Notes: generated by a model from the letters alone, not told the origin. A stretch of DNA of 64,000 bases from Planctomycetota bacterium (GCA_964228555.1 CAXQZU010000022.1:15695-79694); one strand, 5' to 3'; positions 30,563 to 64,000 are shown, counted from the stretch's first letter. A program made the numbers and translations.

Positions 30563-30565
30563 GGG

Positions 30566-31027
30566 TTACCTCCGGGTCCCGCCGCGCCCGGGCGCCGCAG
30601 CCGCGGGCGCGAGCGAGGCAGGATCGAACATGGAACGGAACAGGGCGATGGGCTTGAGCACGTGCTCGACACGGCCCTCGCGCCGGATGGCCGCCAGCGC
30701 GACCACGCCGGCGCCCGTCGGGTCGAAGGTGCTGGGTGACCAGTCCACGACCACATCGTAGCCCGTCAGCGAGAGCGGGTAGGTCTTGCGCCCGGTGGAC
30801 GGCAGGTCGCGCGGCAGGCCGCCGTAGCGGTCCACCTCCTGCTGCACGATCACGAGCACCTCGGGCCGCAGGCGCCGCAGCTCGGTGTCGAGCCGGCGTG
30901 CGGAGAGGTGCTGCGTGCCGATGGCGAACAGGGGCAGGATGGCGAGGCAGCCCACGAGCAGCATGGACAGCGCCACCATCACCTCGAGGAAGGAGAAGCC
31001 GTGCTGGGCGCGCGCGGGAAGGCTCAA
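30566..31027 (-). CDS. small prepilin-type pseudopilin (minor pilin)
   Basis: TTG start coupled to the upstream stop (TTGA), with GGGAGG upstream. Leader MSLPARAQHG precedes FSFLEVMVALSMLLVGC (class III signal peptide, G-F-x-x-x-E). The rest of the 759-aa ORF in the track is an out-of-frame overlap artefact. Confidence 0.72.
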   Translation of the reverse strand: MSLPARAQHGFSFLEVMVALSMLLVGCLAILPLFAIGTQHLSARRLDTELRRLRPEVLVIVQQEVDRYGGLPRDLPSTGRKTYPLSLTGYDVVVDWSPSTFDPTGAGVVALAAIRREGRVEHVLKPIALFRSMFDPASLAPAAAAPGRGGTRR

Positions 31028-34153: not shown

Positions 34154-34191
34154 GCGGGGATCTCCTGGCGGGCGGCGGGAGCCGGCCCGGG

Positions 34192-38336: not shown

Positions 38337-38345
38337 AGGGACCTC

Positions 38346-40301
38346 CTACTTCTGCTGGGCGGCCGCGCGGGCCGCCTCCTCGAGGATGGAACGGGCCTGG
38401 TCTTGCGCCAGGCCGGGGAAACGCTCGGAGAGGACACGCTTGATGTCCTCCACCTTGACCTCGCCGAAGCCCACGCGCGCCTCGAGGCCCCCGGGCGTCA
38501 GGCCCACGAAGGCCGTCGGCTGCTTCTCGTCGTCGAGGCGGATGCGCGCCAGCGTCACGGGGCGGCCCGTGTCGCCCGGGCGGCCCAGCACCTCGCCCGG
38601 CCACAGCTCGAGCTCGAACTCGCCGTCCTGGCCCGGCTTGGGCGGCTTGAAGCGGGTCAGCACGCGCACCACGAGGCCGCGCGTGTTCTCCTCGCAGGCC
38701 TTCACGAACGCCGTGTACTTCTGCTCGGGCTTGTCCACGTTGGCCATCACGCGCAGCGTGGCCAGCACGCGCGCGTCGCGCGCACGCATGGGCTCGGTGC
38801 TGCGCAGGCCGGCCTCGTAGCCGCTGGCCGGGCGGGTGGCCGACTTGGGCCGCACCCACCCGAACTCGTTCACGGGGTCGTCCGTCACGAGGCGCACCGA
38901 CTGTGCGTAGAGCTCGGGCGCCGCGGAGAGGCGCGTCGTGATCTCGCTCCACGCCTGCGCCAGCAGCACGCCCGGCGCCGCGCGCTCGGCCAGCATCCGG
39001 TGCTTGACCTCGCCCTCCTGCGCGCCCACCAGCGCGTCCCGCACGCCACGGTCCTTCTTCTTGACCTCCTCGGCGCGCGCCTTGATCGAGTCGGCACGGT
39101 CCATCCAGGCCTGGCTGGCCTCGCTGCGGCCCGTGTAGAGCAGGCCCAGCGACACCAGCATGACGGCCGCAGCACCGATGGTGAAGATGCCCTTGGTGAG
39201 GAAGTCGCGCTGGCGGCGCATGGCTGCCGGCAGCACCTCGAGCACGAAGGCCGCCGGGGCCATCGCCATCTGCGCGAGGCCCACCGTCACCGAGAACTCG
39301 TGGCCCTGCTCCTCGGCCAGCCGCCGCTCGTCCTCGGAGAGGCCCGAGAGGTCGCACAGCACGAAGGGGTTGAAGCGCTCCACCGGCACGCCCATGGCCT
39401 GCTTGAGGTAGAGGTCGAGGCCCTTGAGGCTGGCGCCGCCACCCGACAGCAGCACGCGGTCGATCTTGAGGTCGGGCATGCGCGTCTGGGCGCGCGCGAT
39501 CATCAGCGTGCTCTGGATCAGGGACGACATCTGGCCGGCCACGCCCATGATGGCGTTGGCGACCTTCTCCGCGGTGGGGTCGGCGTAGCGCGCCTGCGCC
39601 TTGGGCGTCACGTCGCCCTTGCCCACCTTCATCGTCTCGGCCTTGCCCTCGGTCGTGGAGAAGGCCTGCACCAGCGCGTCGGTGAAGGCCTTGCCGCCCG
39701 GCGTGGCGTTCCTGGCGAAGAGCAGCTCGCCGCCACGCTGGATGGCGATGTCGAGGTTCTCGGCGCCCACGTTGACGAGGATCGCGGTCTCCTCCTCGGT
39801 GTAGGTGGCGTTGACCGCGAAGGCGTTGAACAGCGCCACGCTGTTGGGGCAGCAGGCACCCACCTTGAGGCCGCCGCTGCCCAGCGAGCCGATCTGCGCA
39901 TCCACGTAGCGGTTGCGCGCCAGCGCCACGAGGATGGTGTCCTCGCTGCGGTTGCCGTCCGGGTCCGGCAGGTTGAGCTTGCGGTAGTCCGCGCTCACGT
40001 CGCCGCCGGACTGCGAGCCCACCTCCTCCACCTCGAACTTCATCAGGGTGCGCAGGCGCCACTCCGGCACCGGCGGGACCTGGCTGTAGCGGATGATCAC
40101 GTCACGCCCGCTCATGCCCAGCGTCACCGGCGCCCCGGCCAGGCCACGGGCGGCCAGCGCCCGGCCGGCCACCGGGCGCGTGGCCTCGTCCACGCGTTCC
40201 GAGAACAGCTTCTGCACGACGAAGCCTGCGCCCTTGCGACGCAGCTTGACGGCCCTGAGGGAGTGGCTGCCCAGCGTGACACCGAGCCCGGTGGTGGCCA
40301 T
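38346..40301 (-). CDS. PilM-PilN fusion / GspL-like protein (cytoplasmic actin-like ATPase-fold domain + TM + periplasmic domain)
   Basis: N-terminus resembles PilM (GVTLGSHSLRAVKL...; actin-fold glycine loops LLSGGGASLKGLDLYL), followed by a TM helix (IFTIGAAAVMLVSLGLLYTG) and a ~260 aa periplasmic part. Confidence 0.8.
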   Translation of the reverse strand: MATTGLGVTLGSHSLRAVKLRRKGAGFVVQKLFSERVDEATRPVAGRALAARGLAGAPVTLGMSGRDVIIRYSQVPPVPEWRLRTLMKFEVEEVGSQSGGDVSADYRKLNLPDPDGNRSEDTILVALARNRYVDAQIGSLGSGGLKVGACCPNSVALFNAFAVNATYTEEETAILVNVGAENLDIAIQRGGELLFARNATPGGKAFTDALVQAFSTTEGKAETMKVGKGDVTPKAQARYADPTAEKVANAIMGVAGQMSSLIQSTLMIARAQTRMPDLKIDRVLLSGGGASLKGLDLYLKQAMGVPVERFNPFVLCDLSGLSEDERRLAEEQGHEFSVTVGLAQMAMAPAAFVLEVLPAAMRRQRDFLTKGIFTIGAAAVMLVSLGLLYTGRSEASQAWMDRADSIKARAEEVKKKDRGVRDALVGAQEGEVKHRMLAERAAPGVLLAQAWSEITTRLSAAPELYAQSVRLVTDDPVNEFGWVRPKSATRPASGYEAGLRSTEPMRARDARVLATLRVMANVDKPEQKYTAFVKACEENTRGLVVRVLTRFKPPKPGQDGEFELELWPGEVLGRPGDTGRPVTLARIRLDDEKQPTAFVGLTPGGLEARVGFGEVKVEDIKRVLSERFPGLAQDQARSILEEAARAAAQQK

Positions 40302-40353
40302 GGGGAAGTGCTCCGGAACGTGATGCGAGAGGGGTGGGGAAGGGTGGAGACGG

Positions 40354-42813
40354 CTAGCGCGGAGGCAGGGCGTCCACGACGCCCGGCGTGCCCTCGATGC
40401 CCTGCATCGCCGAGGCGAGGCGCGCCAGCAGCGCGTCGCCCTCGGCCGTGCCGGACACCAGCGGCGAGAGGCTGGCCTGCAGGTCGCGATAGATCAGCAG
40501 CGCCATCGCCTCGTAGCCCTTGGTGGTGGCCAGCACCGTGGCCAGGCGCTCGAGTCGCTCGCTGCGCGGGCCCAGCGTGGCCAGCGCGCAGGAGCGCTCG
40601 AGGTCTCGCGCCTCGGCCGCCAGATTCTCCACCTGGCTGGCGTAGCTGCCGTCCGAGGCGCCGGCCGGGGCCGACCCGGCAGGGAAGCTGGCTCGCAGGG
40701 CGGCCTCGCGGGCGCGCATGTCCTGCAGGGCCGTCGGCGAGCCCAGCAGCGCGACGGTGCGGACGGCGCTGCGCAAGGCGGCGATGTCGGCCGTCAGCCG
40801 CTCCTCGAGCTGGCGCGCCAGCGTCGAGGCCTCCTCGGCCACGCCCGCCTGGAAGGGGTTGGCCTGCGCCACCTGGCGCAGCGCCCCGATGGCACTGCCC
40901 GGCGAGGTGCGCGCCAGCTGCTTGGCCGCCTCGAGCGCCTGGCGCGCGGCCTCGGCCTGGGCGCCGAACTCCGTCACGACACCGATGCGTCCCGTGCCGC
41001 CCGCCACCGCGTGCACCAGCCGCACCATGCCCGCGTCGTGGGGGTCCTCGACGCCCAGCCGCGCCGTGGTGTCCACGGGCTGGAAGGCCACCAGCGTCTG
41101 CGGGCGAGGACCGTCCGCCTTGGGGTTGCCCGCCAGCGTCTTGCGCAGGTCGCCATCCACGGCTCCCTGCACCAGGGCCGCGCCACGCGCATCGCTCGGC
41201 GTGAGCACGTTGAGCGCGCCCCCGAGGTGCGCCCGCGGCATCTCCGCCACGAGGCCCACCTGGTCGGCCCCCGCGCAGGCGATCTCGGCCAGCAGGCCCT
41301 CCGGGCCGGCCGCCCAGGTCACGCTGCCCTCGAGGTCGCCGGCGGCACCGCGGAAGCGGCCCGCCACGCGCACCGACTCGCCGGAACGCGCCACCTCGCC
41401 CGTCGCCTCGAAGGCGTGGCGCTCGGTGCCCTTCCACGCCGCGGCCGAGAGGGGCGCGGCCAGCAGCGTGCGGTTGACCTGCAGCGTGGCGCTGCCGTCG
41501 GCCTCCACGGTCACGCTGGGCAGGCCGGGCACGTCCAGCGCCTGCGTCGGGGGCATGCCGGGCGTGGCACGCACGGAGACGTCGTCCAGCGAGAGCTTGC
41601 CCCCCACCGGCACCACCAGCTTGAGCGTCAGCGCGCTGGCCCACGACGGGAAGGAGAGGCTGCGATCGACGCTGCCGCCCGCGCCCGTCCCCAGCACCTG
41701 CGCATGCACCACGCCCGTGGCGCCCACGCCCCGGTCCGCGTCGTTGCGCCACACGGCCAGCAGCTCGCCCTGCCCGCGCAGGCGCGCCTTGATGCGCAGC
41801 TGGCGGCCCGCGCTGGCCAGGATCTCCTCGTCGTAGACCACCTCGCCCGTGCGCGCGCCCTCGGCCTGCTCGTTGCGGGCCTCCAGCACGGCACCCTGCG
41901 GGGTGACGACGCGGCCAGCCGACAGCGAGCCGCCGTCGGCCCACGACCACGGCAACTCGGCGCGCTCGAAGGAGCCATTGCGCACCTGCTCGCCCGTGGG
42001 CCCCTGGGCCGCGCCGCCGGCGTTCTCGGCACCGCGCATGAGGAAGAAGCCGCCCGCCCCCACCAAGGCCAGGAACACCACCGTGCTGATCGTGCCGCCG
42101 CGCGACACGCGGGCCTTGCTGAGGTCGATGTCGCCCATCATGCCCCAGCCGTCCTCGTCGTCGATCGTGGCCAGCTCGGCCTCGATCTCCTTCATGGACG
42201 GGTCGCGGAACACGAAGCGCGTGCCCCCCACGCGCAGGCGCATGCCGTGGGCCAGCGTGGACTCGGTGGTGGTGTTGCCATTGACCAGGATGCCGTTCGT
42301 GCTGCCCAGGTCGCGGATCGTGTAGCCGTTGAGATCCTTCACGATCTCGGCGTGATGCCCCGAGGCCATGCGGTCCTCGAGCACGATGGTGTTGCCCGGG
42401 CGGCGGCCCAGCGTGGTGCGCGGCCCGCTGAGCATCACGCGCTGGCCCTTGCGCGGGCCCTCCGCGTACTCCAGCAGGCACACGCCCTGCTTGCCGGCGG
42501 CCGCCAGGCGCGCCTCCTCCTCCGGGTCCTCGAAGCGGATCGAGACCTTGCCCACCTCGATGGCGTCGCCGCTGGCCAGCGCCCGCGCCTCGATGGCCAC
42601 GCCATTGACCCGCGTCTTGTTGGTGGCGCCCAGGTCCGCCACCTCCCAGCCGCCGGCCGCGGCCGGACGCACCTCGCAGTGCTTGCGCGAGGCGCCCTTG
42701 CCGTCGGGCAGCGCGATGCCGCTGGCGGGGTCGCGCCCCACGCTCAGGCTGGTGCCGGGCACCAGCTCGTAGGTCTTCTTCTCGCCATCGAGGTCGACAA
42801 TCAGCCGCGCCAT
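40354..42813 (-). CDS. double-FHA-domain inner-membrane protein (cytoplasmic FHA-FHA, one TM, large periplasmic domain)
   Basis: Two FHA domains (GRDPASGIALPDGKGASRKHCEV...LGATNKTRVNG and LGRRPGNTIVLEDRMASGHHAEIV...LGSTNGILVNG). TM TISTVVFLALVGAGGFFLM. About 530 aa periplasmic. Topology resembles T3SS YscD/EscD. ATG verified at 42813. Confidence 0.85.
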   Translation of the reverse strand: MARLIVDLDGEKKTYELVPGTSLSVGRDPASGIALPDGKGASRKHCEVRPAAAGGWEVADLGATNKTRVNGVAIEARALASGDAIEVGKVSIRFEDPEEEARLAAAGKQGVCLLEYAEGPRKGQRVMLSGPRTTLGRRPGNTIVLEDRMASGHHAEIVKDLNGYTIRDLGSTNGILVNGNTTTESTLAHGMRLRVGGTRFVFRDPSMKEIEAELATIDDEDGWGMMGDIDLSKARVSRGGTISTVVFLALVGAGGFFLMRGAENAGGAAQGPTGEQVRNGSFERAELPWSWADGGSLSAGRVVTPQGAVLEARNEQAEGARTGEVVYDEEILASAGRQLRIKARLRGQGELLAVWRNDADRGVGATGVVHAQVLGTGAGGSVDRSLSFPSWASALTLKLVVPVGGKLSLDDVSVRATPGMPPTQALDVPGLPSVTVEADGSATLQVNRTLLAAPLSAAAWKGTERHAFEATGEVARSGESVRVAGRFRGAAGDLEGSVTWAAGPEGLLAEIACAGADQVGLVAEMPRAHLGGALNVLTPSDARGAALVQGAVDGDLRKTLAGNPKADGPRPQTLVAFQPVDTTARLGVEDPHDAGMVRLVHAVAGGTGRIGVVTEFGAQAEAARQALEAAKQLARTSPGSAIGALRQVAQANPFQAGVAEEASTLARQLEERLTADIAALRSAVRTVALLGSPTALQDMRAREAALRASFPAGSAPAGASDGSYASQVENLAAEARDLERSCALATLGPRSERLERLATVLATTKGYEAMALLIYRDLQASLSPLVSGTAEGDALLARLASAMQGIEGTPGVVDALPPR

Positions 42814-43180: not shown

Positions 43181-45232
43181 CTAGGCGCGGGGCTTGGGCG
43201 GCTGCTCCTCGTCCATGCCGTAGCGCTCCAGCTTCTTGCGCAGGCCCAGGCGCGAGAGGCCCAGTTCCTCGGCGGCGCGGCTCTTGTTCCACGCGTGCCG
43301 CTGCAGCGTGCCGCGCAGCACGCGGCGCTCGAGGTCCTCGACCAGGCCCTTGAGGCCCTGGTCGGGCAGGGGTGCCCTCGGATCCGGCGGGCGGTAGGCA
43401 AGCAGGCGTGCGCTCAGGTGCTCGGGGCGGATCACGCCGCCACTCTCGAGGGCCAGCAGCCGCTGCACCTCGTTGCGCAGCTCCCGCACGTTGCCGGGCC
43501 AGTCGTAGGCGGCCATCAAGTCCAGCGCGCCGGGCTCGAGGCGCACGGGGCGCGTGGGATCCCCCAGCTCGCGCAGGAACCAGGCCACCAGCGCCGGGAT
43601 GTCCTCCCGCCGGTCGCGCAGCGCCGGCACCTCGATGACCACCCCGGCGAGCCGGTGGTAGAGGTCCTGCCGGAAGCGGCCGTCGGCGATGAGGCTCCCG
43701 AGGTCCACCTGCGTGGCCGCCACCAGCCGCACGTCCACGGGGGTGGCAGCCTTGGCACCCAGCCGCCGCACGGTGCCGCCCTCGAGCACCCGCAGCAGCT
43801 CCTTCTGCAGCTCCGCGGGCAGCTCGCCCACGTCGCGCAGGAACAGCGTGCCCTCGTGGGCCTGCTCGAAGAGGCCGGCGTGGTCCCGCGGCGCGGCGGG
43901 CACCGCCCCCCGCACGGCGCCGCGGAACTCGCTCTCCACGAGGCCCGGCGGCAAGGCGCCGCAGGCCTCCACCACGAAGCGACCGCGACGCTGGGCCCCG
44001 TTGAAGTGGATGGCTCGCGCCAGCAGCTCCTTGCCCGTGCCGGGCTCCCCCACCACCAGCACCGGCACGTCCAGGTCGGTCACCCGGTCCACGACACGCA
44101 GCAGCGTGCGCATGGCCGGGCTGCGTCCCACGATGGCGTCGTAGGCGTACTTGAGCCCCAGCTCGTGAGACTGCTTGGCCAGGTCCTCCCGGGCCTGCCG
44201 CAGGGCCGTGGTGCGCAGGCGCAAGGCCTTGCGCAGGCGGTCGTTGAGGCGCTCGATGCGGCGGGACTGGCGCACCGCCTCGCGCCGGCGCATGCCCATC
44301 TCGCGCCGCTGGCGCGCGTTGCGGATGGCGATGGCCGCCAGCCGCGCGTAGCCCTCGAGGATGCGCACGTGGAAGCCATCGAAGCGCCCGGACTCGTAGG
44401 TGTTGTCCAGGTAGATGGCGCCCAGCACCTGCCCCTCGCCGGGCAGCGGCACGCACACCAGCGAGCGCAGCGAGAGGTTGACGATGCTGGCAGCGCCGTC
44501 GAAGCGCTCGTCGCAGATGGCGTCCTCGCTGAGCACGCTGGCGCCCTCGCGGATCACCTGGGCCGCCACGCTGACGGAGTAGGCGCCGTCGGCATCGACC
44601 AGGTCGCGGTGGTCGCGCAGGCGGGCGCGGCGCACCCGGAAGTGGTCGCCCTCGTTGAGCAGCAGGATGCCCCGGGCCGCCCCGCACAGCTGGATGGCGG
44701 CGTCCAGCACGGCGTCGAGCAGCTCGTCCTCGTCGCTGACGGCCTGCAGCTTCTCGTTGAGCTCCATCAGGTGGCCCAGCGCGCGGATCTCGCGCTGGCG
44801 CTCGGCCAGCGTCACGCTGCCGGTGGCGCCAGCGAGGCCCATGTCGGTGGCGTGCGGGTCGGCTTGCGCCGCCTGCTCCACGAGGCCCGGGACCGCCTTG
44901 ACGGCCGGCTTGGGACGGATGGCCCCGGGCAGGAACACGCGCACCTGCGTCTCGCCCACCTCGATGGCATCGCCCTCGGCAAGGCGTGCGTCCAGCACGG
45001 TGGCGCCGTTGAGCATCGTGCCGTTGCGCGAGCCCAGGTCGGTCACGCGCCAGCCATCGCTGCCCAGGTAGATGCGGCAGTGGCGCCTGGAGAGCGTGCG
45101 ATCCTCGACCGGCACGTCCACGCCGGCATCGCGCCCCACCACGACGGCCTCGGCGCGCAGCTCGAAGACCCTCTGGTCGTGGCCGGGCGACTTCACGAAC
45201 AGGCGCAGCGGGTCGCGTGCCATGCCCACCAC
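43181..45232 (-). CDS. FHA-GAF-AAA+-HTH bacterial enhancer-binding-protein homologue with a degenerate GAFTGA motif
   Basis: N-terminal FHA (GRDAGVDVPVEDRTLSRRHCRIY...LGSRNGTMLNG), central GAF-like region, AAA+ with Walker A GEPGTGKE. The GAFTGA position reads ESEFRGAVRGAVPAAP. C-terminal HTH. GTG at 45232 or ATG at 45223. Confidence 0.88.
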   Translation of the reverse strand: MVGMARDPLRLFVKSPGHDQRVFELRAEAVVVGRDAGVDVPVEDRTLSRRHCRIYLGSDGWRVTDLGSRNGTMLNGATVLDARLAEGDAIEVGETQVRVFLPGAIRPKPAVKAVPGLVEQAAQADPHATDMGLAGATGSVTLAERQREIRALGHLMELNEKLQAVSDEDELLDAVLDAAIQLCGAARGILLLNEGDHFRVRRARLRDHRDLVDADGAYSVSVAAQVIREGASVLSEDAICDERFDGAASIVNLSLRSLVCVPLPGEGQVLGAIYLDNTYESGRFDGFHVRILEGYARLAAIAIRNARQRREMGMRRREAVRQSRRIERLNDRLRKALRLRTTALRQAREDLAKQSHELGLKYAYDAIVGRSPAMRTLLRVVDRVTDLDVPVLVVGEPGTGKELLARAIHFNGAQRRGRFVVEACGALPPGLVESEFRGAVRGAVPAAPRDHAGLFEQAHEGTLFLRDVGELPAELQKELLRVLEGGTVRRLGAKAATPVDVRLVAATQVDLGSLIADGRFRQDLYHRLAGVVIEVPALRDRREDIPALVAWFLRELGDPTRPVRLEPGALDLMAAYDWPGNVRELRNEVQRLLALESGGVIRPEHLSARLLAYRPPDPRAPLPDQGLKGLVEDLERRVLRGTLQRHAWNKSRAAEELGLSRLGLRKKLERYGMDEEQPPKPRA

Positions 45233-45301
45233 GAGGCAACCGTCGTGCCAGAGCGCGGCCCCCCGCGGCCTCCACGCCGCGCCCCGGGCGTCACCGAGGC
45301 G

Positions 45302-53799: not shown

Positions 53800-54675
53800 C
53801 TAGCGCATGCCCAGCGCCACCTGCACGGCCTGCAGGTCGTCCCACACGGGGCGCTTGGCCTCGGGATTGCGCAGCAGGTAGGCCGGGTGGAAGGTCGGCA
53901 TCACGCGCCAGCCCTCCGGCGTGCGCATCCAGCTGCCCCGCAGGCTGGTGATGCCCCGCTCCGTGCCCAGCAAGGCGCGCGTGGCGTGATTGCCCAGCGC
54001 GAGGATGGGCGGCGGCCCCAGCAAGGCCAGCTGCTCCTTCATCCAGGGCGTGCAGGCTGCCACCTCCTGGGGCATGGGCGGACGGTTGGCTGGCGGGCGG
54101 CACTTGAGGACGTTGAGGATGAACACGTCGTGGTCGCGCGAGAGCCCGATGGCGGACAGCATGCGCGTGAGCAGCTGGCCGGCCGGCCCCACGAAAGGCA
54201 CCCCCTGTGCGTCCTCTTCCTCCCCCGGCGCCTCGCCCACGACCACCAGGCGGGGGGTGCGGCTGCCCGCCCCGAACACGGCCTGGGTCCGCGAGGCGCA
54301 CAGGCCGCAGCGCTGGCACCCGGCCACCTCGGCCTCCAGCGGACCCCAACGGGCAGGGTCCGGCGGACCGGCGGGGACGGCCCCGGGCGACACGACGACG
54401 GGCCCGGGGAGGCCGCTCTCCGGACGCCGCCCCGTGGCAGGCAGCGCGGGCCCTAAGCCACGCGGGCCCGTTCGCGGGCCGCTGCCGCCCCCTTGCCCCG
54501 GCCCACGGGCCTGCTGCGTGGCACGGCCCTGTCCCATGGCGCCGTGGGCCCCCGGCGGCACGGCCACCGTCGGCTGCGGCTCCTCGGCCGGCAAGTAGCG
54601 GGCTCCGGCGCCCCGTACCCACTCGACGTAGAAGAGGGCCTCGTCGAGCAGCGGATCAGGTGCGCCCGGCATCAC
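53800..54675 (-). CDS. family-4 (Fe-S, UdgA-type) uracil-DNA glycosylase with a Gly/Pro-rich N-terminal extension
   Basis: GCQRCGLC ... GEAPGEEEDAQGVPFVGPAG ... ILNVLKCRPPANR ... HPAYLLRN motifs. The true start may lie downstream of 54675. Confidence 0.8.
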   Translation of the reverse strand: MMPGAPDPLLDEALFYVEWVRGAGARYLPAEEPQPTVAVPPGAHGAMGQGRATQQARGPGQGGGSGPRTGPRGLGPALPATGRRPESGLPGPVVVSPGAVPAGPPDPARWGPLEAEVAGCQRCGLCASRTQAVFGAGSRTPRLVVVGEAPGEEEDAQGVPFVGPAGQLLTRMLSAIGLSRDHDVFILNVLKCRPPANRPPMPQEVAACTPWMKEQLALLGPPPILALGNHATRALLGTERGITSLRGSWMRTPEGWRVMPTFHPAYLLRNPEAKRPVWDDLQAVQVALGMR

Positions 54676-54754: not shown

Positions 54755-54940
54755 ATGGCTGCGGGCCAGCAGCAAAAAGCCGGGATCGGGTGACGCGAGC
54801 GTGACACGCAGGCCGGACTCTTCCCTCGTCCAGGGTCCATGGGCAGGCCTGCATCGCGGCGCGCGCGCGCCGTCCCGACGCACGAGGGTTCGTCGGGGGC
54901 ATGCAGGCGTGCTCGTGTTCCCGCATGGAGCACACCGCGG

Positions 54941-57760
54941 ATGTCGAGCATCACCTCGTTCACGAACCTCCCTGCGTCGCGCCGTGTCCTTGGCATCGCG
55001 CTCTGCGTGCTGCTGGCCACGCCGCTGGCCGCGTGCCGGACCCACCGCCTCGGCGTGGAGCCCTACGGCCCCGCCGGCGAGGCCGGTGACGCGCCGGTCG
55101 CGCCCGCGCAGCCGGGCCCCGACACCGTGGTGGCCAGCGCTCAGCCCGAGGAGCAGCCCGCGGCTCCTGCGGCCGAGCCGCCGGCTGAGCCTGCGCCCGC
55201 CCCGGCGCCCGAGAAGACGCCCGAGCAGCAGCTGGAGGAGGCGCGTCGCGCCGCGCAGATCGCCAGCGAGCAGACCAAGTTCCTGGTCGGCCAGCAGCTG
55301 GCCAAGGCCCGCGAGGCGATGAGCGCCGGCAACATCGAGGCCGCCCGCGAGGCCTACGGCAAGGCGCTGGAGCTGGATCCGGGCAACAGCGAGGCCCTCG
55401 AGGGCTGGACCAACCTGACCTCGAACCGCCCCAGCTCCGTGGAGGGCTACCTCAAGGAGCAGCGTGCGCTCCAGCAGGTGCGCCGCCAGGAGGCCGTGGC
55501 GCGCGTGCGCAACCACCTCGAGCTGGGCCGCTCGCTCGAGTCGCGCGAGGAGTTTGCCGGCGCGGTGCAGGAGTACAACCGCGCGCTGGCGATCGTGAGC
55601 TGGTACGACGACACCAGCGACTTCGGCACCTCCGCCGCCGCGCTGCGTGACCTGATCGACAACGCCCAGCACAAGTCGGCCCTGGCCGAGCGCACCCGTC
55701 GCGAGGAGGCCCTGCGTGCCGCCCAGGTCGAGCGCGAGCGCGACCTGATGCGCACCCGCGAGCAGGCGCTGGGCAAGATCCAGGCCTACTTCGAGCAGGC
55801 CAACGTGGCCTTCCGCGAGGGCCGCTACGAGGCAGCCATCGACTACGCGCGCCAGGTGCTGCGCATCGACCCCACCAACCGCAGCGCCACGGGCATGATC
55901 AACGTCGCGCACGACGCCAAGCACATGGCCGCGCTCGACACGCACAAGCGCAACTTCGACGACCAGTGGAAGCGCGTCATGCAGCAGCTCGAGTTCGACA
56001 TGCTGCCGCAGACCAAGGTCGTGGAGTGGTCCGAGGACTGGCTGGACGGCATCGCCCAGCGCAAGCCCCGCGTGGTGGGCGACGCGGTGCCCACCGACGA
56101 GCTGGGCACCAACGGCGCCATCTACGCCGCGCTGAAGAGCAAGCGCGTGACGAACCTGCAGTGGGGTGACGACACCACGCTGCCCATGGCCGTGAGCTAC
56201 CTGCGCACGATGACCGGCCTGAACTTCTACATCACGCCCAAGGCGCAGACCGAGAAGGAGGAGGCCCGCGTGCCCCTCACGATCGACGACTACGCCGTGA
56301 GCGACATCCTCGACATCATGACCGAGCAGAACGGCCTCAAGTGGGAGGTGCGTGACGGCCTGGTGCGCATCACCACCGCCGAGGAGATCACCGGCTCGTA
56401 CATCCGCCGCTTCTTCGACATCAACGACCTGCAGGTCAAGATCCAGTCGCACCTGGGCCAGGAGATCAACCTGTTCCCCAGCAACTTCACGCCGCCCGAG
56501 CCGCCCGAGCTGGCCGAGCCCGTGGAGATGATCGCCCCCGAGCAGCTGCAGGAGCTGATCAAGGAGACGATCGGCGGGCCTGGCGCGTGGGAGGACCCCG
56601 CCATCCTCGAGGCCCGCAAGGGCCTGCTGATCGCCGTGAACACCCCCGAGGTGCTGGCGGACGTCGAGAAGCTGCTCAACGAGCTGCGCGCCAACACGGG
56701 CTTGCTCGTGAACCTCGAGGTGCGCTTCCTGACGGCCGAGGACAACTTCCTGCGCGACGTCGGCATCGACGTGCGCGGCCTGGGCCTGACCAACACGACG
56801 GCCGGCGTGCCCGGGCTGGGCACCTCGGTGACCCAGAACGACGTGTTCTTCGGCAACCCCTCCGCCCCCACGGGCTTCAGCAGCGCGCTGGGCCTGCAGC
56901 CCGAGCCCTCCTCGGTGGGCACGGCAGCGGACGCGGGCCTCTTCTACAACGACGGTGCGGACGGCCAGTACTCGGCACGCATGGAGAACCTCTTCGACGT
57001 GCTGCTGGGCAACCCGGAGGTCCTCACGGGCTCGGGCGGCCTCTCGTTCCAGCACACCTTCCTCGACGACACCGAGATGGAGGTGATCCTGCGCGCCGTC
57101 CAGAAGAGCGAGCGCATCCAGAACATCACCAGCCCGCGCATCACGGTCTACAACACCCAGCGCGCCAACGTGCAGGTGCTCAACCAGGTCTCGTACGTGC
57201 AGGACTACGAGGTCGAGATCGCGCAGGCGTCGAACATCGCCAACCCCGTGATCCAGACCATCCTCGACGGCATCGTGCTGGACGTGCGCCCCACGGTCTC
57301 GCAGAACCTGAAGTTCGTGACGCTCGAGCTGCGTCCCACGGTGGCCGTGCTCACCCGCCCGATCGCGACGTTCACCACGTCGCTGGCCTCGGGCCCGGTG
57401 ACGGCCAACGCCCCCATCACGATCCAGCTGCCCGAGCTGCGCGTGAGCCGCGTGCGCACGACGGTGACGATGCCCGACCGCGCCACCCTGCTGCTGGGCG
57501 GCCTGAAGTACTACGAGCAGGAGACGATGACCAGCACGACGCCCATCCTGGGCGACATCCCGATCCTGTCGCTGCTGTTCTCGCGCAAGGGCCACTACGT
57601 CAACCGCCGCAACCTGCTGATCCTCATCACGGCCGAGATCGTGCCGCTCGAGGAGTACGCGCCCAAGGGCGAGCTCGACGTGCAGCCCCTGCCGCCCGAG
57701 GCGTTCACGTGGCGCCCGGTGGCCGAGCCGGTCGCGGCGCCTGCGCCGGCCTGCAAGTAG
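54941..57760 (+). CDS. secretin (T2SS/T4P/T3SS family) with an N-terminal TPR-lipoprotein (pilotin-like) domain
   Basis: Lipoprotein signal (VLGIALCVLLATPLAAC). Pro/Ala-rich linker, three or more TPR-like motifs (AYGKALELDPGNSEAL; AIDYARQVLRIDPTN), secretin N domains (LKWEVRDGLVRITT; LLIAVNTPEVLADVEKLLNELRA) and the C-terminal secretin core (LLVNLEVRFLTAE ... TTPILGDIPILSLLFSRKG ... NLLILITAEIV). Confidence 0.9.
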   Translation: MSSITSFTNLPASRRVLGIALCVLLATPLAACRTHRLGVEPYGPAGEAGDAPVAPAQPGPDTVVASAQPEEQPAAPAAEPPAEPAPAPAPEKTPEQQLEEARRAAQIASEQTKFLVGQQLAKAREAMSAGNIEAAREAYGKALELDPGNSEALEGWTNLTSNRPSSVEGYLKEQRALQQVRRQEAVARVRNHLELGRSLESREEFAGAVQEYNRALAIVSWYDDTSDFGTSAAALRDLIDNAQHKSALAERTRREEALRAAQVERERDLMRTREQALGKIQAYFEQANVAFREGRYEAAIDYARQVLRIDPTNRSATGMINVAHDAKHMAALDTHKRNFDDQWKRVMQQLEFDMLPQTKVVEWSEDWLDGIAQRKPRVVGDAVPTDELGTNGAIYAALKSKRVTNLQWGDDTTLPMAVSYLRTMTGLNFYITPKAQTEKEEARVPLTIDDYAVSDILDIMTEQNGLKWEVRDGLVRITTAEEITGSYIRRFFDINDLQVKIQSHLGQEINLFPSNFTPPEPPELAEPVEMIAPEQLQELIKETIGGPGAWEDPAILEARKGLLIAVNTPEVLADVEKLLNELRANTGLLVNLEVRFLTAEDNFLRDVGIDVRGLGLTNTTAGVPGLGTSVTQNDVFFGNPSAPTGFSSALGLQPEPSSVGTAADAGLFYNDGADGQYSARMENLFDVLLGNPEVLTGSGGLSFQHTFLDDTEMEVILRAVQKSERIQNITSPRITVYNTQRANVQVLNQVSYVQDYEVEIAQASNIANPVIQTILDGIVLDVRPTVSQNLKFVTLELRPTVAVLTRPIATFTTSLASGPVTANAPITIQLPELRVSRVRTTVTMPDRATLLLGGLKYYEQETMTSTTPILGDIPILSLLFSRKGHYVNRRNLLILITAEIVPLEEYAPKGELDVQPLPPEAFTWRPVAEPVAAPAPACK

Positions 57761-57802: not shown

Positions 57803-57840
57803 CGAGCCCCGGGGCACGCCCCCGGGGCTCGTCTCGTTGG
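57803..57840 (+). terminator. rho-independent-terminator-like hairpin downstream of the secretin gene
   Basis: Perfect 12-bp GC stem CGAGCCCCGGGG-cacgc-CCCCGGGGCTCG followed by TCTCGTTGG, 43 nt after the secretin stop. Confidence 0.6.
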
Positions 57841-58023: not shown

Positions 58024-61000
58024 ATGGTGTTCACGCGCCGCTTCCTGCGCCTCTCCGGCGTCCTGCTGCTGCCCGCCCTGCTGCTGGCGGGCGCACCGCG
58101 CGCCGAGGCCGGTGCGGACGACTTCGAGTTCGGCCAGAAGCTGGCCCAGGCGCGCTTCTTCAAGCTGGCCCGCCGCGTCTACGAGGGCATGCTCACGGCG
58201 CAGGGCAGCAGCGACACGCAGAAGGACCTCGCGCGCTACGGGCTCGCCACGCTCGGCCACCAGGAGGCGCTCAGCGCCGGCGCCCGCAGCGAGGTGCCCT
58301 TCGCCGAGGTGATCGCGCTCTACAACACGGCCGCCGAGCAGGTGGACGCCTTCGCCCAGAAGAACCCCAACCACCCCAAGGCACGCGACGCGCGGCTGCT
58401 GAGCGGCAAGATCCGCCTCGACGTCGTCAACTGGTGCCGCGACCTGCTGGACCTGCCTGAGATGCTGGCGTCGCGCAAGGCCTCGCCCGGCGAGGTGGCC
58501 TCGGCCGCGCGCAAGGCCGTCGACGACGCCACCTCGCACTTCGAGGCCCTCAAGGGCTCGGGCGGCGACCTGGCCGAGCTGGCGGGGTACTACTGGACCA
58601 CGGCCCAGTACTACAAGGCCCTGACGCTGGACGGCGGCAGCGCAGCCCAGATGGCCGCCTTGCGCGACGCCGAGACCAAGCTGGACGACTACATCAGCGA
58701 GAACGACGGCAAGCTGCTGGCCGTGTTCGCGCAGGACATGCTGGGCCTGACGCTGGCCGAGCGCGCGAAGCACACGCCCGGCGACGAGGAGCGCGCGCAG
58801 CTCTACAGCAAGGCGCTGACCTGGTTCCAGACCTGCATCGACCAGGAGTACATGGACGCGGACACGCTCACGGTCATCACCAATGGCTACCAGCACTACG
58901 GCAAGGCCTGCCTCGAGGCGGGCCGCATCGGCACGCGCAACTTCTGGCGCGAGGGCGTCAACGTGCTGGGCGAGATGCTGGCCAAGGTGCCGACCTCGGG
59001 CAAGACCGGCAACGGCATCCGCGCCATGCTGGTGCTGGGCGACCTGCAGAAGGCGCTGGGCGACTCCTCGGCCGCGCTGAACACGTACAAGGACGCATCG
59101 GACCGGGCCAGCCAGATCGACCAGCGCGGCCTGGCAGCAGAGGCCGACAAGCGCGTGCGCGAGGCCACGCGCGGCGGCGCCGTGCAGATCACCGACATCA
59201 ACATCGCGCGCAAGGTGGCGCAGAGCAACCTCGACGAGAAGCGCTGGGAAGAGGCGATCTCGGGCTTCCAGGACGTGATCGCGCTGGCGCCCAGCACGCC
59301 GCAGGCCTTCGTCGAGATGGTGTGGCCGTCGTGGGAGAAGATTGCCACGGCCTACCGCGAGCTGGGCGATCCGCTGTCGGCCGCGATGGCCTACGAGGCC
59401 ATCCACGAGGCATGGCTGGCCGGCCTCATCTCGCACAAGAAGGGTGACGAGAACGACAACAACATGCGCCGCGCCGGCGGCAATCGCAAGGCGGGCATCC
59501 GCCTGCTGGACGAGCTGGCCACGAAGACCGGATCCAAGGTGTTCCGCGAGGCCATGAAGCGCGCCGACGCAGGCTTTGCCACGGACTTCCCCGACCACCC
59601 GGACAGCAAGGACAGCGTGCTGCGCGTGGCGCTGGACAAGTACAAGGCGGCGCGCGACGCCAAGCGGGCGAAGGCGGCCGGCTGGCGCGCACAGTTCGAG
59701 GAGGCGCGCAAGCTGTTCGAGGCCGAGGCCCGCAACGCCAAGAGCCAGAACCAGGACGCGGCGGCCTCCTACGTGATCCAGATCGACTACCAGATGGTCT
59801 ACGACCCCGGCACGGTGGCGCCCCCGGCCGAGGGCCGCAAGGCGGCCGAGCGCGGGCTGGCCTTCTCCAGCGAGATGCTTGCCTTCTGGGCCTCGGAGGC
59901 CGGCCAGCAGAAGATCAAGGACTTCCCCACGCTGGCCGGCAAGCGCACCTCGGCCGTGAAGGACGTGCGCCTGCGCCGTGGTGACCTGCTCAAGGCGCTG
60001 GACCGCTGGGACGAGGTGATCTCCGAGATGACCGCGATGCGCTCCGAGGTGGGCGACGGCGAGGAGGGGGACGACGCGCAGGCCCTCGTGGTGGAGGCCC
60101 ACGTCGAGAAGGGCAGCACGGCTGCCGCCGACGAGGCGCTCAAGGTGCTGCTCAAGCGCGGCAAGCACCCGGCCATCCCGGCGCTGGTGGGCAAGGTGGC
60201 TGGCACCTTCGACGCCCAGTTCCGCGAGCTGACCAAGCAGTTCAACACGAAGAACGAGGAGCTCAACGGCACCCGCGAGGACCGCAGCACGGGCATCAAC
60301 GCGCGCATGCGCACGACCGAGGCCCGCTACAACGACCTGCTGGCGCAGAAGGTGAGCCGCCAGCAGGTGGTGGACGTGCACCGCCGCGACATCGAGGCGT
60401 GGCGCAAGGACCCCGAGACCCGCAAGGGCCTGACCGAGAAGACGGTGAAGGAGCTCGAGGAGAAGACCATCCCCGAGCTCGACGCCCTGGTCGCGAGCCT
60501 GACGAGCGAGATCGGCTCGCTGGACACGCAGATGCAGGCCCTGCGCACGCGTTCGGAAGCCCTGCAGGGCGAGATCCGCGACATCACCCTCGCGCAGTAC
60601 GCGCCGCTCAAGGAGGCGGTCAAGCGCTTCGACCTGGGCCTGCAGAGCGCGCTGGACGCCGGCGTGACGCCCAAGGCCGCCGAGCTGGGCAACATCGCCG
60701 CCCGCTGGTACGCCGCGGCCCGCAACGCCAAGGGCGAGGAGGGAGACTGGCAGAAGGCCCGCCTGCGCTACGAGCAGTTCATGGACCTGGCCGAGGTGAA
60801 GGCGCTGCCTGACACCGACGCGAGCAAGCGGGGCGCGCAGGCCAAGCTGGGGCGCATCTACTCGCACTTCTCCGAGGTGGAGAAGGATGCCGGCCGCCGC
60901 GCCGAGACCGTGCGCAAGGCCATCCTGCTGCTGGAGCAGACGCTGGCAGCCCGGCCGGAGAACAACGAGATCCTGCTGGGCTTGCTGGGCGGGCGCTACG

Positions 61001-61734
61001 GCGTGGTGGTGTGGGAGAACCCGGTCGAACGGGGCCCGGTCTACCGCTTCATCGTGCCCAAGGCGGCGGACCTGGCGGCCTTCAAGGCAGCCGTGGCCCG
61101 CCTCGGCACGCCGGAGAGCCCGGTTCCGCTGCCGCGCGTGGGCGACGAGGCCCGCATGGTGGCCTATCGACGGGCCCTGGCCACGTGGAAGGACAGCGTG
61201 CCCACGATGGAGAGTGCCATGCAGGAGCTGCTGCTCAAGGACTTGCGCGGCTCGGGCCTGGATGCCGCCACGTGGCGCGAGCTGGGCAACACGGACCGCG
61301 AGTACCGCACCTCGCTGGCCTCGGCCTACTCCGAGAGCGGCGAGGACGCCGACCTCGGCAAGGGGGACGTGGTGCTGGCCACGCTGCTGCAGGGCCCGCT
61401 GTCCGTCGAGGACTTCAGCGACGAGTACTGGGATGTCTCGACCCTCGTGCTGCGCCACTGGGCCAACCACAGCGAGCGCCTCTCGGCCGCCGGTGGGGTG
61501 GCCGCCAAGGCCAGCGAGCTGCGCAAGCGCGCGAGGCAGTTCATCACGGGCCGCACCTCGGTGGCCAGCGTGCCGCTGGCCAACGGCGTGCGCGAGGAGT
61601 GGCAGCGCCTGGTCGAGCGCTTCAACCGCGGCCTGCGAGCCGAGGGCGCGCCCGAGATCAGCGTCAGCCTCGAGCGCATGGCCCCCCCGGCCCCGGCGGC
61701 ACCTGCCGGCACGCAGGAAGGGACTGGCAAGTGA
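58024..61734 (+). CDS. very large secreted alpha-helical/TPR-like hypothetical protein
   Basis: 1236 aa. Signal peptide MVFTRRFLRLSGVLLLPALLLAGAPRAEA. Long coiled-coil/TPR-like composition. ATG verified at 58024. Confidence 0.75.
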   Translation: MVFTRRFLRLSGVLLLPALLLAGAPRAEAGADDFEFGQKLAQARFFKLARRVYEGMLTAQGSSDTQKDLARYGLATLGHQEALSAGARSEVPFAEVIALYNTAAEQVDAFAQKNPNHPKARDARLLSGKIRLDVVNWCRDLLDLPEMLASRKASPGEVASAARKAVDDATSHFEALKGSGGDLAELAGYYWTTAQYYKALTLDGGSAAQMAALRDAETKLDDYISENDGKLLAVFAQDMLGLTLAERAKHTPGDEERAQLYSKALTWFQTCIDQEYMDADTLTVITNGYQHYGKACLEAGRIGTRNFWREGVNVLGEMLAKVPTSGKTGNGIRAMLVLGDLQKALGDSSAALNTYKDASDRASQIDQRGLAAEADKRVREATRGGAVQITDINIARKVAQSNLDEKRWEEAISGFQDVIALAPSTPQAFVEMVWPSWEKIATAYRELGDPLSAAMAYEAIHEAWLAGLISHKKGDENDNNMRRAGGNRKAGIRLLDELATKTGSKVFREAMKRADAGFATDFPDHPDSKDSVLRVALDKYKAARDAKRAKAAGWRAQFEEARKLFEAEARNAKSQNQDAAASYVIQIDYQMVYDPGTVAPPAEGRKAAERGLAFSSEMLAFWASEAGQQKIKDFPTLAGKRTSAVKDVRLRRGDLLKALDRWDEVISEMTAMRSEVGDGEEGDDAQALVVEAHVEKGSTAAADEALKVLLKRGKHPAIPALVGKVAGTFDAQFRELTKQFNTKNEELNGTREDRSTGINARMRTTEARYNDLLAQKVSRQQVVDVHRRDIEAWRKDPETRKGLTEKTVKELEEKTIPELDALVASLTSEIGSLDTQMQALRTRSEALQGEIRDITLAQYAPLKEAVKRFDLGLQSALDAGVTPKAAELGNIAARWYAAARNAKGEEGDWQKARLRYEQFMDLAEVKALPDTDASKRGAQAKLGRIYSHFSEVEKDAGRRAETVRKAILLLEQTLAARPENNEILLGLLGGRYGVVVWENPVERGPVYRFIVPKAADLAAFKAAVARLGTPESPVPLPRVGDEARMVAYRRALATWKDSVPTMESAMQELLLKDLRGSGLDAATWRELGNTDREYRTSLASAYSESGEDADLGKGDVVLATLLQGPLSVEDFSDEYWDVSTLVLRHWANHSERLSAAGGVAAKASELRKRARQFITGRTSVASVPLANGVREEWQRLVERFNRGLRAEGAPEISVSLERMAPPAPAAPAGTQEGTGK

Positions 61735-61763
61735 GCACGATCGCCCGCACGGAGGACTTGAGC

Positions 61764-63128
61764 ATGCACCGTCCCGATTCCCGCCCGCTGCTGCGTGGCA
61801 CGCTGTGCTCGCTGGCCCTCGGGGCCGTGCTGCTGGCGGCCCTGCCGGCGCACGCCGACGACACGATCACGGCGCTCAACCCGGACACCTGCGAGCGCTA
61901 CACGATCAAGTGCACGGAGGTGCTGCCGGAGACGGCCACCGAGGTGCGCTACAAGCTGGGCAAGGCCGAGAAGAGCGTGCCCCTGCCGCTGGTGGTCGAG
62001 ATCGAACGCAGCACCGGCGGCAAGGAGCGAGCCATCCTCGAGGCGGCCCTGCTGGAGCTGCGGCGCGGCAACTTCACCGAGGCCCGCACCTCGTTGCGCG
62101 ACCTGGCCGCGGGCGGCTTCAAGATGGAGGACGGCGTGCAGAAGTTCACGCCCTTCCCCAAGGGCGGCAGCGGCGCCAAGGGCAAGCGCGTGGCGTGGAC
62201 GCAGGAGTACGCGCACTACTGGTACGCCGTGGCGCTGGTGCGCGAGGGCGAGAAGTCGGGCAACGGCAAGCTGCTCGAGGAAGCCCTGCTGGTGCTGGAT
62301 GACGTGCCGGCGCCCGGCGACGGCAAGGAGACCACGGGCGGCTTCCTCGGCCGCTTCAAGGGTGGCAACAGCCGCTGGATCGCGGACGCCACGCTGCTCA
62401 AGGCGGAGGCCCTCCTGGGGCTCAAGCGCTGGGACGAGGCCGCGGCCGCCTTCAACGAGCTGTCCAACCTCGGCATGAGCGCCGGCTACTCGCCGCGCTG
62501 GGTGTTCGAGGGCAAGCGCGGCCCGGGCCGCATTGCCGAGGCGCAGGGCGACACCGACACGGCCATCCGCGCCTACGAGGGCGCGCCGCAGGCCCTGGAC
62601 TCGTTGCTCAAGGACCTGCCCAGCCGCTGCCTGCGGCTGGAGGCGGGCCGCTGGTACAGCGTGCTGCGCATGGAAGCCGCCAAGGTGCTGCTGCGCAAGG
62701 CGGAGGCCAGCGGCAAGCCCGCTGACTTCATGCCTGTGCGCAACTACCTGGAGGGCAGCACGCCCGAGGCGCTCCAGCGCAAGGTGTCGGGCAAGCCGCC
62801 GGAGCAAGCCGAGGCCTTGCTCGCAGGCTCGCGGGCCCCGGAGGTGCGCGCCGTGCTGGCCAGCGGCCTGGGCCAGGCCTACCTGGCCGACAAGCGGTTC
62901 GACGACGCCATCCTGTCGCTCTCGGCACTGACGGTGCGCGGGGGCGCAGGCAGCACGGGCGCTGCCCGCGACCTCGTGGCGGGTGCCCTCTACTACCTGG
63001 CCAAGGCCTGCGAGGGTGCGATCCAAGGAGCCTCGGGGGAGGCCAAGGCCACCTACGAGGCCATGCGCTCGGGCGCTCTCAAGCGGCTGAAGACCGACTT
63101 CGCCGACAGCCTCTACGCCACCAAGTAG
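61764..63128 (+). CDS. secreted hypothetical protein
   Basis: 454 aa. GGAGG 9 nt upstream. Signal peptide MHRPDSRPLLRGTLCSLALGAVLLAALPAHA. Follows the 1236-aa gene by 29 nt. Confidence 0.72.
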   Translation: MHRPDSRPLLRGTLCSLALGAVLLAALPAHADDTITALNPDTCERYTIKCTEVLPETATEVRYKLGKAEKSVPLPLVVEIERSTGGKERAILEAALLELRRGNFTEARTSLRDLAAGGFKMEDGVQKFTPFPKGGSGAKGKRVAWTQEYAHYWYAVALVREGEKSGNGKLLEEALLVLDDVPAPGDGKETTGGFLGRFKGGNSRWIADATLLKAEALLGLKRWDEAAAAFNELSNLGMSAGYSPRWVFEGKRGPGRIAEAQGDTDTAIRAYEGAPQALDSLLKDLPSRCLRLEAGRWYSVLRMEAAKVLLRKAEASGKPADFMPVRNYLEGSTPEALQRKVSGKPPEQAEALLAGSRAPEVRAVLASGLGQAYLADKRFDDAILSLSALTVRGGAGSTGAARDLVAGALYYLAKACEGAIQGASGEAKATYEAMRSGALKRLKTDFADSLYATK

Positions 63129-63412: not shown

Positions 63413-64000
63413 ATGAAGTCCAAGATCCTCGTCGGCGCCGTGCTGGCCGCTGCCCTCCTCGTGGTCCTGCCCGATGCAGCCTGGGCAGCCGACGTGAAGA
63501 ACATCGGCAACGAGACCTTCTTCGAGTCGGTCATCAACTGGGGTGGCTGGGTCGGCTGGCTCATCATCGCCCTGTCCGTGTGGACCGTGGCCATGATCAT
63601 CGAGATGTCGGTGAGCATGCGCCGCGACAAGATCTGCGCGCCGGAGCTGATCGACGAGATCAACGCCCTGATGCAGGAGGACGAGTACCAGGAGGCGCTC
63701 GAGCTGTGCGAGGCGCAGCCCAACTTCGTGACGAACAGCCTCGGTGCGGCCCTGCCGCGCCTGAGCGAGGGCTGGGGCGAGATGAAGTCGGCGATGGAGA
63801 ACGCGGCCAACTACGAGGCCCTCAAGCTGCAGCAGAAGGTGGGCTGGCTGCTCTTCATCTCGAACCTCGCCCCCCTGCTGGGCCTGTTCGGCACGGTGAC
63901 GGGCATGATCGAGGCCTTCAAGGAGATCGTGCGCCTCGGTGCCAAGGTGACGCCCACCGACCTGGCCGCCGGCATCTCGGCCGCGCTCATCACCACCTTC
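63413..64000 (+). CDS. MotA/TolQ/ExbB-family proton-channel protein (partial, 3' end beyond the window)
   Basis: LGLFGTVTGMIEAF ... DLAAGISAALITTF matches the TolQ/ExbB TM2-TM3 signature. Unusually preceded by a signal-peptide-like N-terminus (MKSKILVGAVLAAALLVVLPDAAWA). Confidence 0.8.
   Translation, partial: MKSKILVGAVLAAALLVVLPDAAWAADVKNIGNETFFESVINWGGWVGWLIIALSVWTVAMIIEMSVSMRRDKICAPELIDEINALMQEDEYQEALELCEAQPNFVTNSLGAALPRLSEGWGEMKSAMENAANYEALKLQQKVGWLLFISNLAPLLGLFGTVTGMIEAFKEIVRLGAKVTPTDLAAGISAALITTF

Follow-up and report, generated by a model that had tools for sequence, protein, structure and literature searches.

Domain organization of the TPR-liposecretin

A stretch of 64,000 nucleotides from a Planctomycetota bacterium (GCA_964228555.1, CAXQZU010000022.1:15695-79694; hereafter the window, with a G+C content of ~74%) carries on its plus strand, at 54941-57760, the gene of a 939-residue liposecretin with tetratricopeptide repeats (TPRs), a 'SecA'-clade orthologue of planctomycetal PilQ-like secretins. 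The stop-to-stop frame around the gene covers 54794-57760, and the longest ATG open reading frame (ORF; 54839-57760) would yield 973 residues. The start at 54941, which gives the 939-residue product, is backed by the GC content of the codon positions (GC3 0.97, GC2 0.44) and by homologues of 936-941 residues. The signal peptide (54941-55036) reads MSSITSFTNLPASRRVLGIALCVLLATPLAAC, with an RR pair in the n-region and a hydrophobic core ahead of the lipobox LAAC, which contributes Cys32. It is followed by a disordered linker rich in Pro, Ala and Glu (residues 33-93; 55037-55219) that has predicted local distance difference test (pLDDT) values below 50 and varies in length in the alignment. The lipobox cysteine is at least 90% conserved among 54 representative homologues. 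Of 99 planctomycetal homologues of nearly full length, a heuristic finds a lipobox in 44, most of which belong to the SecA clade, and the motif is present in all seven inspected incomplete matches that keep an N-terminus.

The domains, all on the plus strand, were delineated using Pfam and NCBIfam profiles with curated cut-offs, an AlphaFold2 model and fold searches. The helical TPR module spans residues 94-353 (55220-55999; pLDDT 80-93) and exceeds the curated cut-offs of Pfam TPR_1 (E=6.5e-13), TPR_2 (9.4e-14, in three stretches), TPR_8 and TPR_14 (2.1e-11). The best stretches, at residues ~119-155 and 281-313, are canonical TPRs above the Pfam cut-offs. The model contains three helix-turn-helix hairpins (residues ~115-145, 188-221 and 279-309), each of which terminates a long helix of 34-61 residues, and these hairpins resemble consensus TPR designs. 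The module is conserved down to relatives with 19-25% identity. It precedes an N0/STN-like domain (residues 388-480; 56102-56380) and an N3-like ring-building domain (residues 533-607; 56537-56761), the latter recognized from the AlphaFold2 secondary structure and by alignment to MshL/PilQ profiles. The secretin core (57050-57643) matches Pfam PF00263 at residues 719-901 with 90.7 bits against a gathering threshold of 27.5 (E=1.1e-25), and the fold matches of the model include many solved secretins, with a likeness at the superfamily level only.

A Gly/Pro/Ser-rich insertion (residues 608-703; 56762-57049; pLDDT 26-37) separates the core from the last N domain; these ~100 residues are conserved among close homologues and not present in canonical secretins. 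The chain ends with a 38-residue Pro-rich tail bearing a terminal Cys motif (57644-57757), as defined from the sequence, the alignment and the model. The last residues are PAPACK, and the tails of close homologues are Cys-rich (e.g. CGNCGHCSRC). This segment may be S-domain-like or may form disulfides or bind metal.

An earlier note on this DNA had described a 939-residue protein with a lipobox and a Pro/Ala-rich linker, followed by three TPR-like motifs, one or more N domains and a secretin core. The ORF, codon-position GC content, sequence and pLDDT profile confirm the former part, and Pfam and AlphaFold2 confirm the domain order. A lipid-anchor motif and TPRs, the hallmarks of TPR pilotins, are indeed joined to a secretin in one chain. 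An origin of this fusion as an assembly or frameshift artefact was rejected, given that hundreds of independent sequences share the architecture.

Relationship to the Akkermansia PilQ family

Among curated profiles, the secretin is nearest to the Amuc_1098 family (NCBIfam NF042912; E=3.6e-32, 111.3 bits in three stretches). MshL comes next (4.2e-29), and GspD, PilQ and SctC rank behind both, with every curated family far below its cut-off. The protein differs from MshL, PilQ, GspD and RcpA in being devoid of AMIN, of Pfam Secretin_N repeats and of a BON domain (the Pfam scan of the protein gave no Secretin_N and no AMIN match) and in carrying the extra low-complexity insertion of ~100 residues ahead of the core. 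A scan of one genome per bacterial species returned at least 529 relatives, and the best 80 are almost all from Planctomycetota metagenome-assembled genomes. A BLAST comparison with a verrucomicrobial family member aligns the core (3e-16, ~22% identity) and the TPR region (3e-6) collinearly.

The architecture that defines the Amuc_1098 family, an N-terminal three-TPR module and a C-terminal secretin domain in ~900 residues, is that of the window protein, and both proteins also share a signal peptide and a Pro/Ala-rich linker. For Akkermansia PilQ (Amuc_1098), Ottman et al. reported "three TPRs resembling pilotins" in 2016 and located the PilQ homologue in the outer membrane by immuno-electron microscopy (PMC4960237). 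The same layout and the comparison with pilotins had therefore already been published, and the fusion is not new. TPR-secretins are the norm in the Planctomycetota-Verrucomicrobiota-Chlamydiota (PVC) superphylum, and the fusion by itself adds little to the Akkermansia description.

The resemblance extends to a partner gene. The operons of Verrucomicrobia-type relatives run Amuc_1102 - PilM (Amuc_1101) - Amuc_1100 - X - TPR-secretin, and Amuc_1098 is partnered with an Amuc_1101-type PilM-like protein. An Amuc_1101-like gene is also found in the window (38346-40301, minus strand). It encodes a PilM/GspL-like fusion of an actin-like domain, a transmembrane (TM) part and a periplasmic domain (Pfam PilM_2, 1.3e-20) that has predicted TM segments and finds its best match in the NCBIfam family Amuc_1101_fam (8.1e-39). 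Unlike in the Amuc_1098 operons, it lies 15 kb from the secretin gene and on the other strand. Because the Amuc_1098- and Amuc_1101-type relatives align with these proteins and are their best matches, the secretin and the PilM/pseudopilin block of the window appear to be planctomycetal counterparts of the known PVC pilus gene set. The verrucomicrobial members of the family differ from the window protein by their ordinary signal peptides without a lipobox, and their operons, unlike the planctomycetal cluster described below, contain no TolQ/TolR genes.

The TPR module as an integral part of the secretin

Is the N-terminal part of the protein a fused pilotin of the PilF/Tgl type, as the earlier note had proposed? 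PilF/PilW (Pseudomonas, Neisseria), Tgl (Myxococcus) and TadD (Tad) are required for the stability, multimerization and outer-membrane targeting of secretins. The window protein shares with these pilotins a lipobox and TPR repeats. However, TPR pilotins are encoded by separate genes of ~250 residues and form contiguous TPR superhelices, whereas in the window module, which is placed N-terminal to N0, helices of 34-61 residues separate the three hairpins. The TPR families score above their cut-offs, but the pilotin family TIGR02521 reaches only 10.7 bits against a cut-off of 154. Moreover, sequence searches of the PDB (E<=10) recovered no pilotin chain, and pilotins were not found in the top lists of the fold searches with the secretin model.

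The module alone (346 residues) was searched against 1.84 billion representative proteins, which gave 606 matches at E<=0.001. Among the best 150 of these 606 matches, the module is matched as one unit in 107, of which 66 contain at least 380 further residues (median length, 887), and no stand-alone homologue of the TPR module was found. Shorter matches were considered as candidates for free-standing TPR proteins and rejected: the lengths form a continuum, and all eight inspected examples continue toward or into N0 and stop abruptly, as fragments do. In a sample selected by length (820-1000 residues, n=54), PF00263 is present in 50 proteins and TPR_2 in 49. The fused-pilotin proposal thus finds no pilotin match by sequence or fold and meets a set of full-length relatives in which module and secretin go together in 50 of 54 cases.

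The TPR module is also retained where the lipobox is missing, namely in the verrucomicrobial and Phycisphaerae-like relatives and the two close relatives P0009 and P0010, all with ordinary signal peptides, and in some paralogues; the role of the module therefore cannot depend on lipidation. In our reading of these comparisons, the TPR module is an ancestral, integral and family-defining front end of the PVC-superphylum pilus secretins and not a recently captured PilF/Tgl-type pilotin. The predicted lipid anchor would be a planctomycetal addition, which recalls the liposecretins HxcQ (type II secretion system of P. aeruginosa) and BfpB (type IVb pilus of enteropathogenic Escherichia coli). These two proteins likewise have an N-terminal lipobox followed by a long linker, and BfpB is the top Foldseek match of the secretin model. 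They differ in the absence of a TPR module and in their proteobacterial contexts, and their similarity is confined to the superfamily level. A paper on Mesorhizobium Y4yS that was considered as a precedent for a natural fusion was set aside, since its fusions are engineered.

A conserved gene cluster headed by the secretin

A hidden Markov model (HMM) scan of all six frames identifies this secretin as the only one in the window. Between its gene and the end of the PilM/FHA/pseudopilin block on the minus strand (28488-42813) lie 12.1 kb, and both the uniqueness and the distance of ~12 kb on the opposite strand agree with the earlier note. The further claim that the secretin stands apart in a unit of its own did not hold, since orthologues head a conserved secretin/TPR/TPR/TolQ/TolR cluster. 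This cluster emerged from the six-frame ORFs of 81 related loci and iterated HMM searches, and its recurrent order is a uracil-DNA glycosylase gene, optionally a PilM-like gene with two or three unknown genes, secretin A, 'BIG', 'MID', a TolQ-like gene, two or three TolR-like genes, secretin B and, optionally, a stretch from a GT2 gene to that of a GT-C/TPR protein. Pfam supports the order in one locus with 28% identity and in two contigs with 55% identity.

The genes following the secretin in the window are conserved in this order on the plus strand. BIG (58024-61734) is a secreted 1236-residue all-alpha TPR-like solenoid with a long coiled-coil hairpin; it has a signal peptide and is modelled as an alpha-solenoid of 1200 residues (pLDDT 81). 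MID (61731-63128) is a secreted TPR-like protein of 465 residues, and the TolQ/ExbB-like proton-channel gene (63413-64000) runs off the end of the window, where relatives continue with two or three TolR/ExbD genes. The channel gene is nearest to TolQ and its partners are nearest to TolR, all below cut-off. Across the loci, BIG occupies stop-to-stop frames of 950-1450 residues and MID measures ~370-500 residues; typical sizes of the two TPR proteins in Planctomycetota are ~1000-1240 and ~370-465 residues. ORFs at the BIG position are homologous over 720-785 columns (hhalign 99.9-100%). Searches of Pfam, NCBIfam and the PDB gave no named match for BIG and MID and only seven unnamed homologues. 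In a neighbour-joining tree, the window secretin belongs to the clade that always precedes BIG, and the secretins located after the TolR genes or in tandem form a separate clade.

Of 52 non-Phycisphaerae loci, 30 have motor genes flanking the secretin, down to a secretin identity of ~27%, and many of the others are incomplete. Motor genes flank the secretin in none of the 27 Phycisphaerae-like loci and were not found beside verrucomicrobial relatives or in a subclade with tandem secretins (L008, L011, L012, L014 and L037). This synteny suggests a secretin-TolQ/TolR link, for which no description was found in the literature searched; queries on planctomycetal TPR secretins, on secretin-ExbB/ExbD pairs and on crateriform structures together with a secretin returned nothing relevant.

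Two TPR-secretin paralogues per cluster, in tandem or flanking TolQ/R, are found in a number of loci (L008, L011, L012, L014, L034-L040, L045-L048, L051 and L068). According to the lipobox heuristic, exactly one member carries a lipobox in 17 of 21 such pairs, both in three and neither in one. The one-lipobox pairs hint that the two secretins may work as a pair or hetero-oligomer in which one partner is anchored.

The PilM block and the cluster are closer together elsewhere. In ten related planctomycetal loci (L015, L016, L020, L029, L048 and L049 and the Phycisphaerae-like L056, L058, L077 and L079), a same-strand PilM-like gene precedes the secretin by at most 6.5 kb, and in several genomes the cluster directly follows an Amuc_1101-type PilM gene. 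Because the orthologues head a conserved cluster that is PilM-linked in other genomes, the 12-kb gap and the opposite orientation in the window appear to be a local, lineage-specific rearrangement.

A perfect 13-bp GC-rich hairpin (57803-57833, plus strand), a candidate terminator or attenuator, begins 43 nt past the stop codon, and perfect hairpins of 10-16 bp occupy the same position in three relatives (L001, L002 and L003). The strong terminator that had been proposed to end the transcription unit is therefore present as a hairpin, but the hairpin has no U-tract and is not called by a terminator scan. A promoter-like site precedes BIG, and the secretin and BIG frames nearly abut in other lineages. 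Given the hairpin and the promoter-like site, transcript levels of the secretin may differ from those of the adjacent genes in this lineage. The sigma-54 promoter motif is not enriched in the sequence (21 matches against 28 expected), and none is placed convincingly before the secretin or BIG.

Functional interpretation

We propose that the secretin probably forms the outer-membrane channel for a type IV filament machine of the PVC type (pilus or pseudopilus), with a TPR module that is ancestral and not a captured pilotin. This proposal builds on three points that are demonstrated here: the order of the domains, the conservation of this order, and a homology to the Amuc_1098/Amuc_1101 pair that holds for the secretin as well as for the PilM-like gene. 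The secretin would reach the outer membrane through a predicted lipid anchor of its own, similar to lipidated HxcQ, for which self-piloting is established (cited in PMC12475490). On a flexible linker of ~60 residues, N0 and the TPR module would extend far into the enlarged periplasm beneath the C-terminal barrel, and the module would offer proteins a docking platform while the ring assembles or afterwards. The likeliest partners of this platform would be the two secreted TPR solenoids with the TolQ/TolR-like motor, the PilM/GspL-like platform or a second secretin paralogue. Several observations weigh against the proposal. The secretin scores far below the cut-off of each curated family, with 111.3 of 750 bits for Amuc_1098, 101.5 of 250 for MshL (TIGR02519), 72.3 of 351 for GspD (TIGR02517) and 69.5 of 284 for PilQ (TIGR02515). 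No gene for an ATPase (GspE/PilB) or a platform protein (GspF/PilC) is found in the 64 kb, so the filament machine is incomplete here. P0009 and P0010, the closest relatives, lack the lipobox, and the anchor is thus dispensable in at least some lineages. Finally, the AlphaFold2 model has a predicted template modelling score of 0.37, with which inter-domain packing, such as that of the TPR module on N0, cannot be read from the model.

Alternatively, the lipidated TPR module could perform the PilF/PilW/Tgl/TadD task in cis, from escort by the Lol pathway to multimerization, and make a separate pilotin unnecessary. We regard such a cis-acting pilotin as doubtful, although the combination of a lipobox, a flexible linker and TPRs in one chain reproduces the composition of TPR pilotins, the published comparison for Amuc_1098 is the same and the 64-kb window contains no gene for a small TPR lipoprotein. 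The predominance of one-lipobox pairs in the two-secretin loci would also fit, as if one lipidated chain sufficed per complex, and the TPR groove of TadD binds the C-terminal tail of RcpA (PMC10499894), which the 38-residue Pro-rich tail of the window secretin brings to mind. These points are countered by the absence of pilotin affinity in sequence and fold, by the three isolated hairpins between long helices in place of a PilF-like superhelix and by the relatives that keep the TPRs without a lipobox. In addition, known pilotins work on the membrane-proximal part of a secretin at its C-terminus, whereas the module occupies the opposite, membrane-distal end at the N-terminus, and in HxcQ the lipid anchor alone is enough. 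A different design is suggested by the exporters PgaA, BcsC and PelB and by AlgK with AlgE, which also combine a periplasmic N-terminal TPR scaffold with an outer-membrane channel and have glycosyltransferase genes nearby. By analogy, the TPR-secretin would guide a polysaccharide or glycoconjugate made by the neighbouring glycosyltransferases. Conserved GT2, methyltransferase, AsnB-like and 1410-residue GT-C-like neighbours, together with descriptions of TPR-porin exporters and of secretin-dependent slime secretion (PMC12475490), speak for export, but the cluster contains no polymerase, flippase or synthase, and a role of the GT2/GT-C pair in glycosylating proteins or lipids in the periplasm would fit equally well. 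Furthermore, the exporter channels are monomeric porins of 16-18 strands without homology to the multimeric secretin, which is itself homologous to pilus secretins and operon-linked to PilM-like genes. We therefore consider an export function very improbable.

The conserved cluster raises a further alternative, in which the two secreted TPR solenoids connect a proton-driven motor of the TolQ/TolR type with one or two rings of secretin by docking on the secretin TPR module. This motor-coupled envelope machine would account for the conserved secretin - BIG - MID - TolQ/R order, the extended homology of BIG and the position of the window secretin in the clade that always precedes BIG. It would also parallel the scaffolds that tie 5:2 motors to outer-membrane complexes, namely PflA/PflB with MotAB, SprE/PorW with GldLM and GltD/GltE with AglRQS. 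The PDB fold matches of BIG are generic solenoid scaffolds, the bacterial ones including the Campylobacter flagellar periplasmic scaffold and the SprE complex of the type IX secretion system; the PflB match belongs to the secretin model and not to BIG. The closest parallel is the Agl-Glt core (Luciano et al. 2011, PMC3169522), in which secreted TPR proteins of ~1200 and ~470 residues lie beside one TolQ-like and two TolR-like genes and the wider locus also codes for an FHA-TM protein. BIG, MID and the motor genes mirror GltD (1191 residues), GltE (471 residues) and AglR/Q/S in size, signal peptides, TPR content and order, and BIG and MID are possibly distant GltD/GltE analogues. However, the sizes in this likening are those of Table 1 of PMC3169522; no secretin is reported in the Glt core, and the core is not reported from Planctomycetota. 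The evidence for the coupling is synteny. A hairpin and a promoter-like site stand between the secretin and BIG in this lineage, and motor genes were not found beside Phycisphaerae-like and verrucomicrobial relatives or in the tandem-secretin subclade. Moreover, the cluster has no TonB- or TolA-like transducer, BIG and MID resemble no named protein in sequence, and the fold matches are generic TPR scaffolds with TM-scores below 0.25. Coupling through the solenoids thus appears unlikely, and it is slightly less likely still that the secretin forms the outer-membrane end of a complete machine coupled to the proton motive force, composed of a TolQ/TolR 5:2 motor, the periplasm-spanning BIG and MID solenoids and one or two TPR-secretin rings. 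If true, the secretin of such a machine would be gated or driven by the motor, which could serve, for instance, the dynamics of fibres or the uptake or export of macromolecules across the enlarged planctomycetal periplasm, with the TPR modules as coupling sites.

The interest of the protein lies in its planctomycetal features. The form with a predicted lipid anchor and the TolQ/TolR-TPR cluster together are a variant that is undescribed in the literature searched. The near-invariant planctomycetal lipobox offers a natural test of whether the lipid anchor, the TPR module or both replace trans-acting pilotins, and the conserved secretin-TPR-TPR-TolQ/TolR cluster, with or without a second secretin, suggests an energy-coupled partner system for a secretin. 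Planctopirus limnophila now offers genetic tools and strains with pilQ-like deletions (PMC11958385), so that these ideas are directly testable.

Neighbouring genes in the window

The PilM block on the minus strand includes four prepilin-type (N_methyl) pseudopilin genes (30566-34153), genes for a 1075-residue TPR protein and a 306-residue bitopic protein between the pseudopilins and PilM (34192-38336) and the gene of an FHA-FHA-TM protein (40354-42813). The 306-residue protein shows no similarity to the Amuc_1100-like protein or to its equivalent in locus L016, and the proteins encoded between PilM and the secretin in other loci belong to no Pfam family. The FHA-FHA-TM protein, whose gene adjoins the PilM-like gene, consists of a cytoplasmic portion with two FHA domains, a single TM helix and a periplasmic part of ~560 residues. 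It matches the GltG model over the FHA domain only and has neither a Pro-rich nor a TonB_C end.

A sigma-54 activator with FHA and GAF domains (43181-45232) precedes the FHA-FHA-TM gene. A near-consensus sigma-54 -24/-12 element, TGGCACGACGGTTGCC, is located at 45235-45250 (minus strand), 3 nt upstream of the predicted activator start; the start codon may be mis-set or the activator gene may be autoregulated.

A uracil-DNA glycosylase family gene (53800-54675, minus strand) is the conserved divergent or upstream neighbour of the SecA-clade secretins. It lies immediately upstream of them in 32 related loci and has no obvious functional link to them.

Between 46054 and 53750 (minus strand) lie genes for a 1410-residue GT-C-like protein with ~8 N-terminal TM helices and TPRs, an AsnB-like amidotransferase, a methyltransferase and a small GT2 protein. 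This set is found on the upstream side of the cluster here and on the downstream side in L041-L051, and it may constitute a periplasmic glycosylation module. In a 1001-residue bitopic protein (24471-27476, minus strand), which is not an ordinary pseudopilin, the GspG C-terminal motif (DPWG..Y...GPDG..GT.DD) occurs three times and a prepilin leader is missing.

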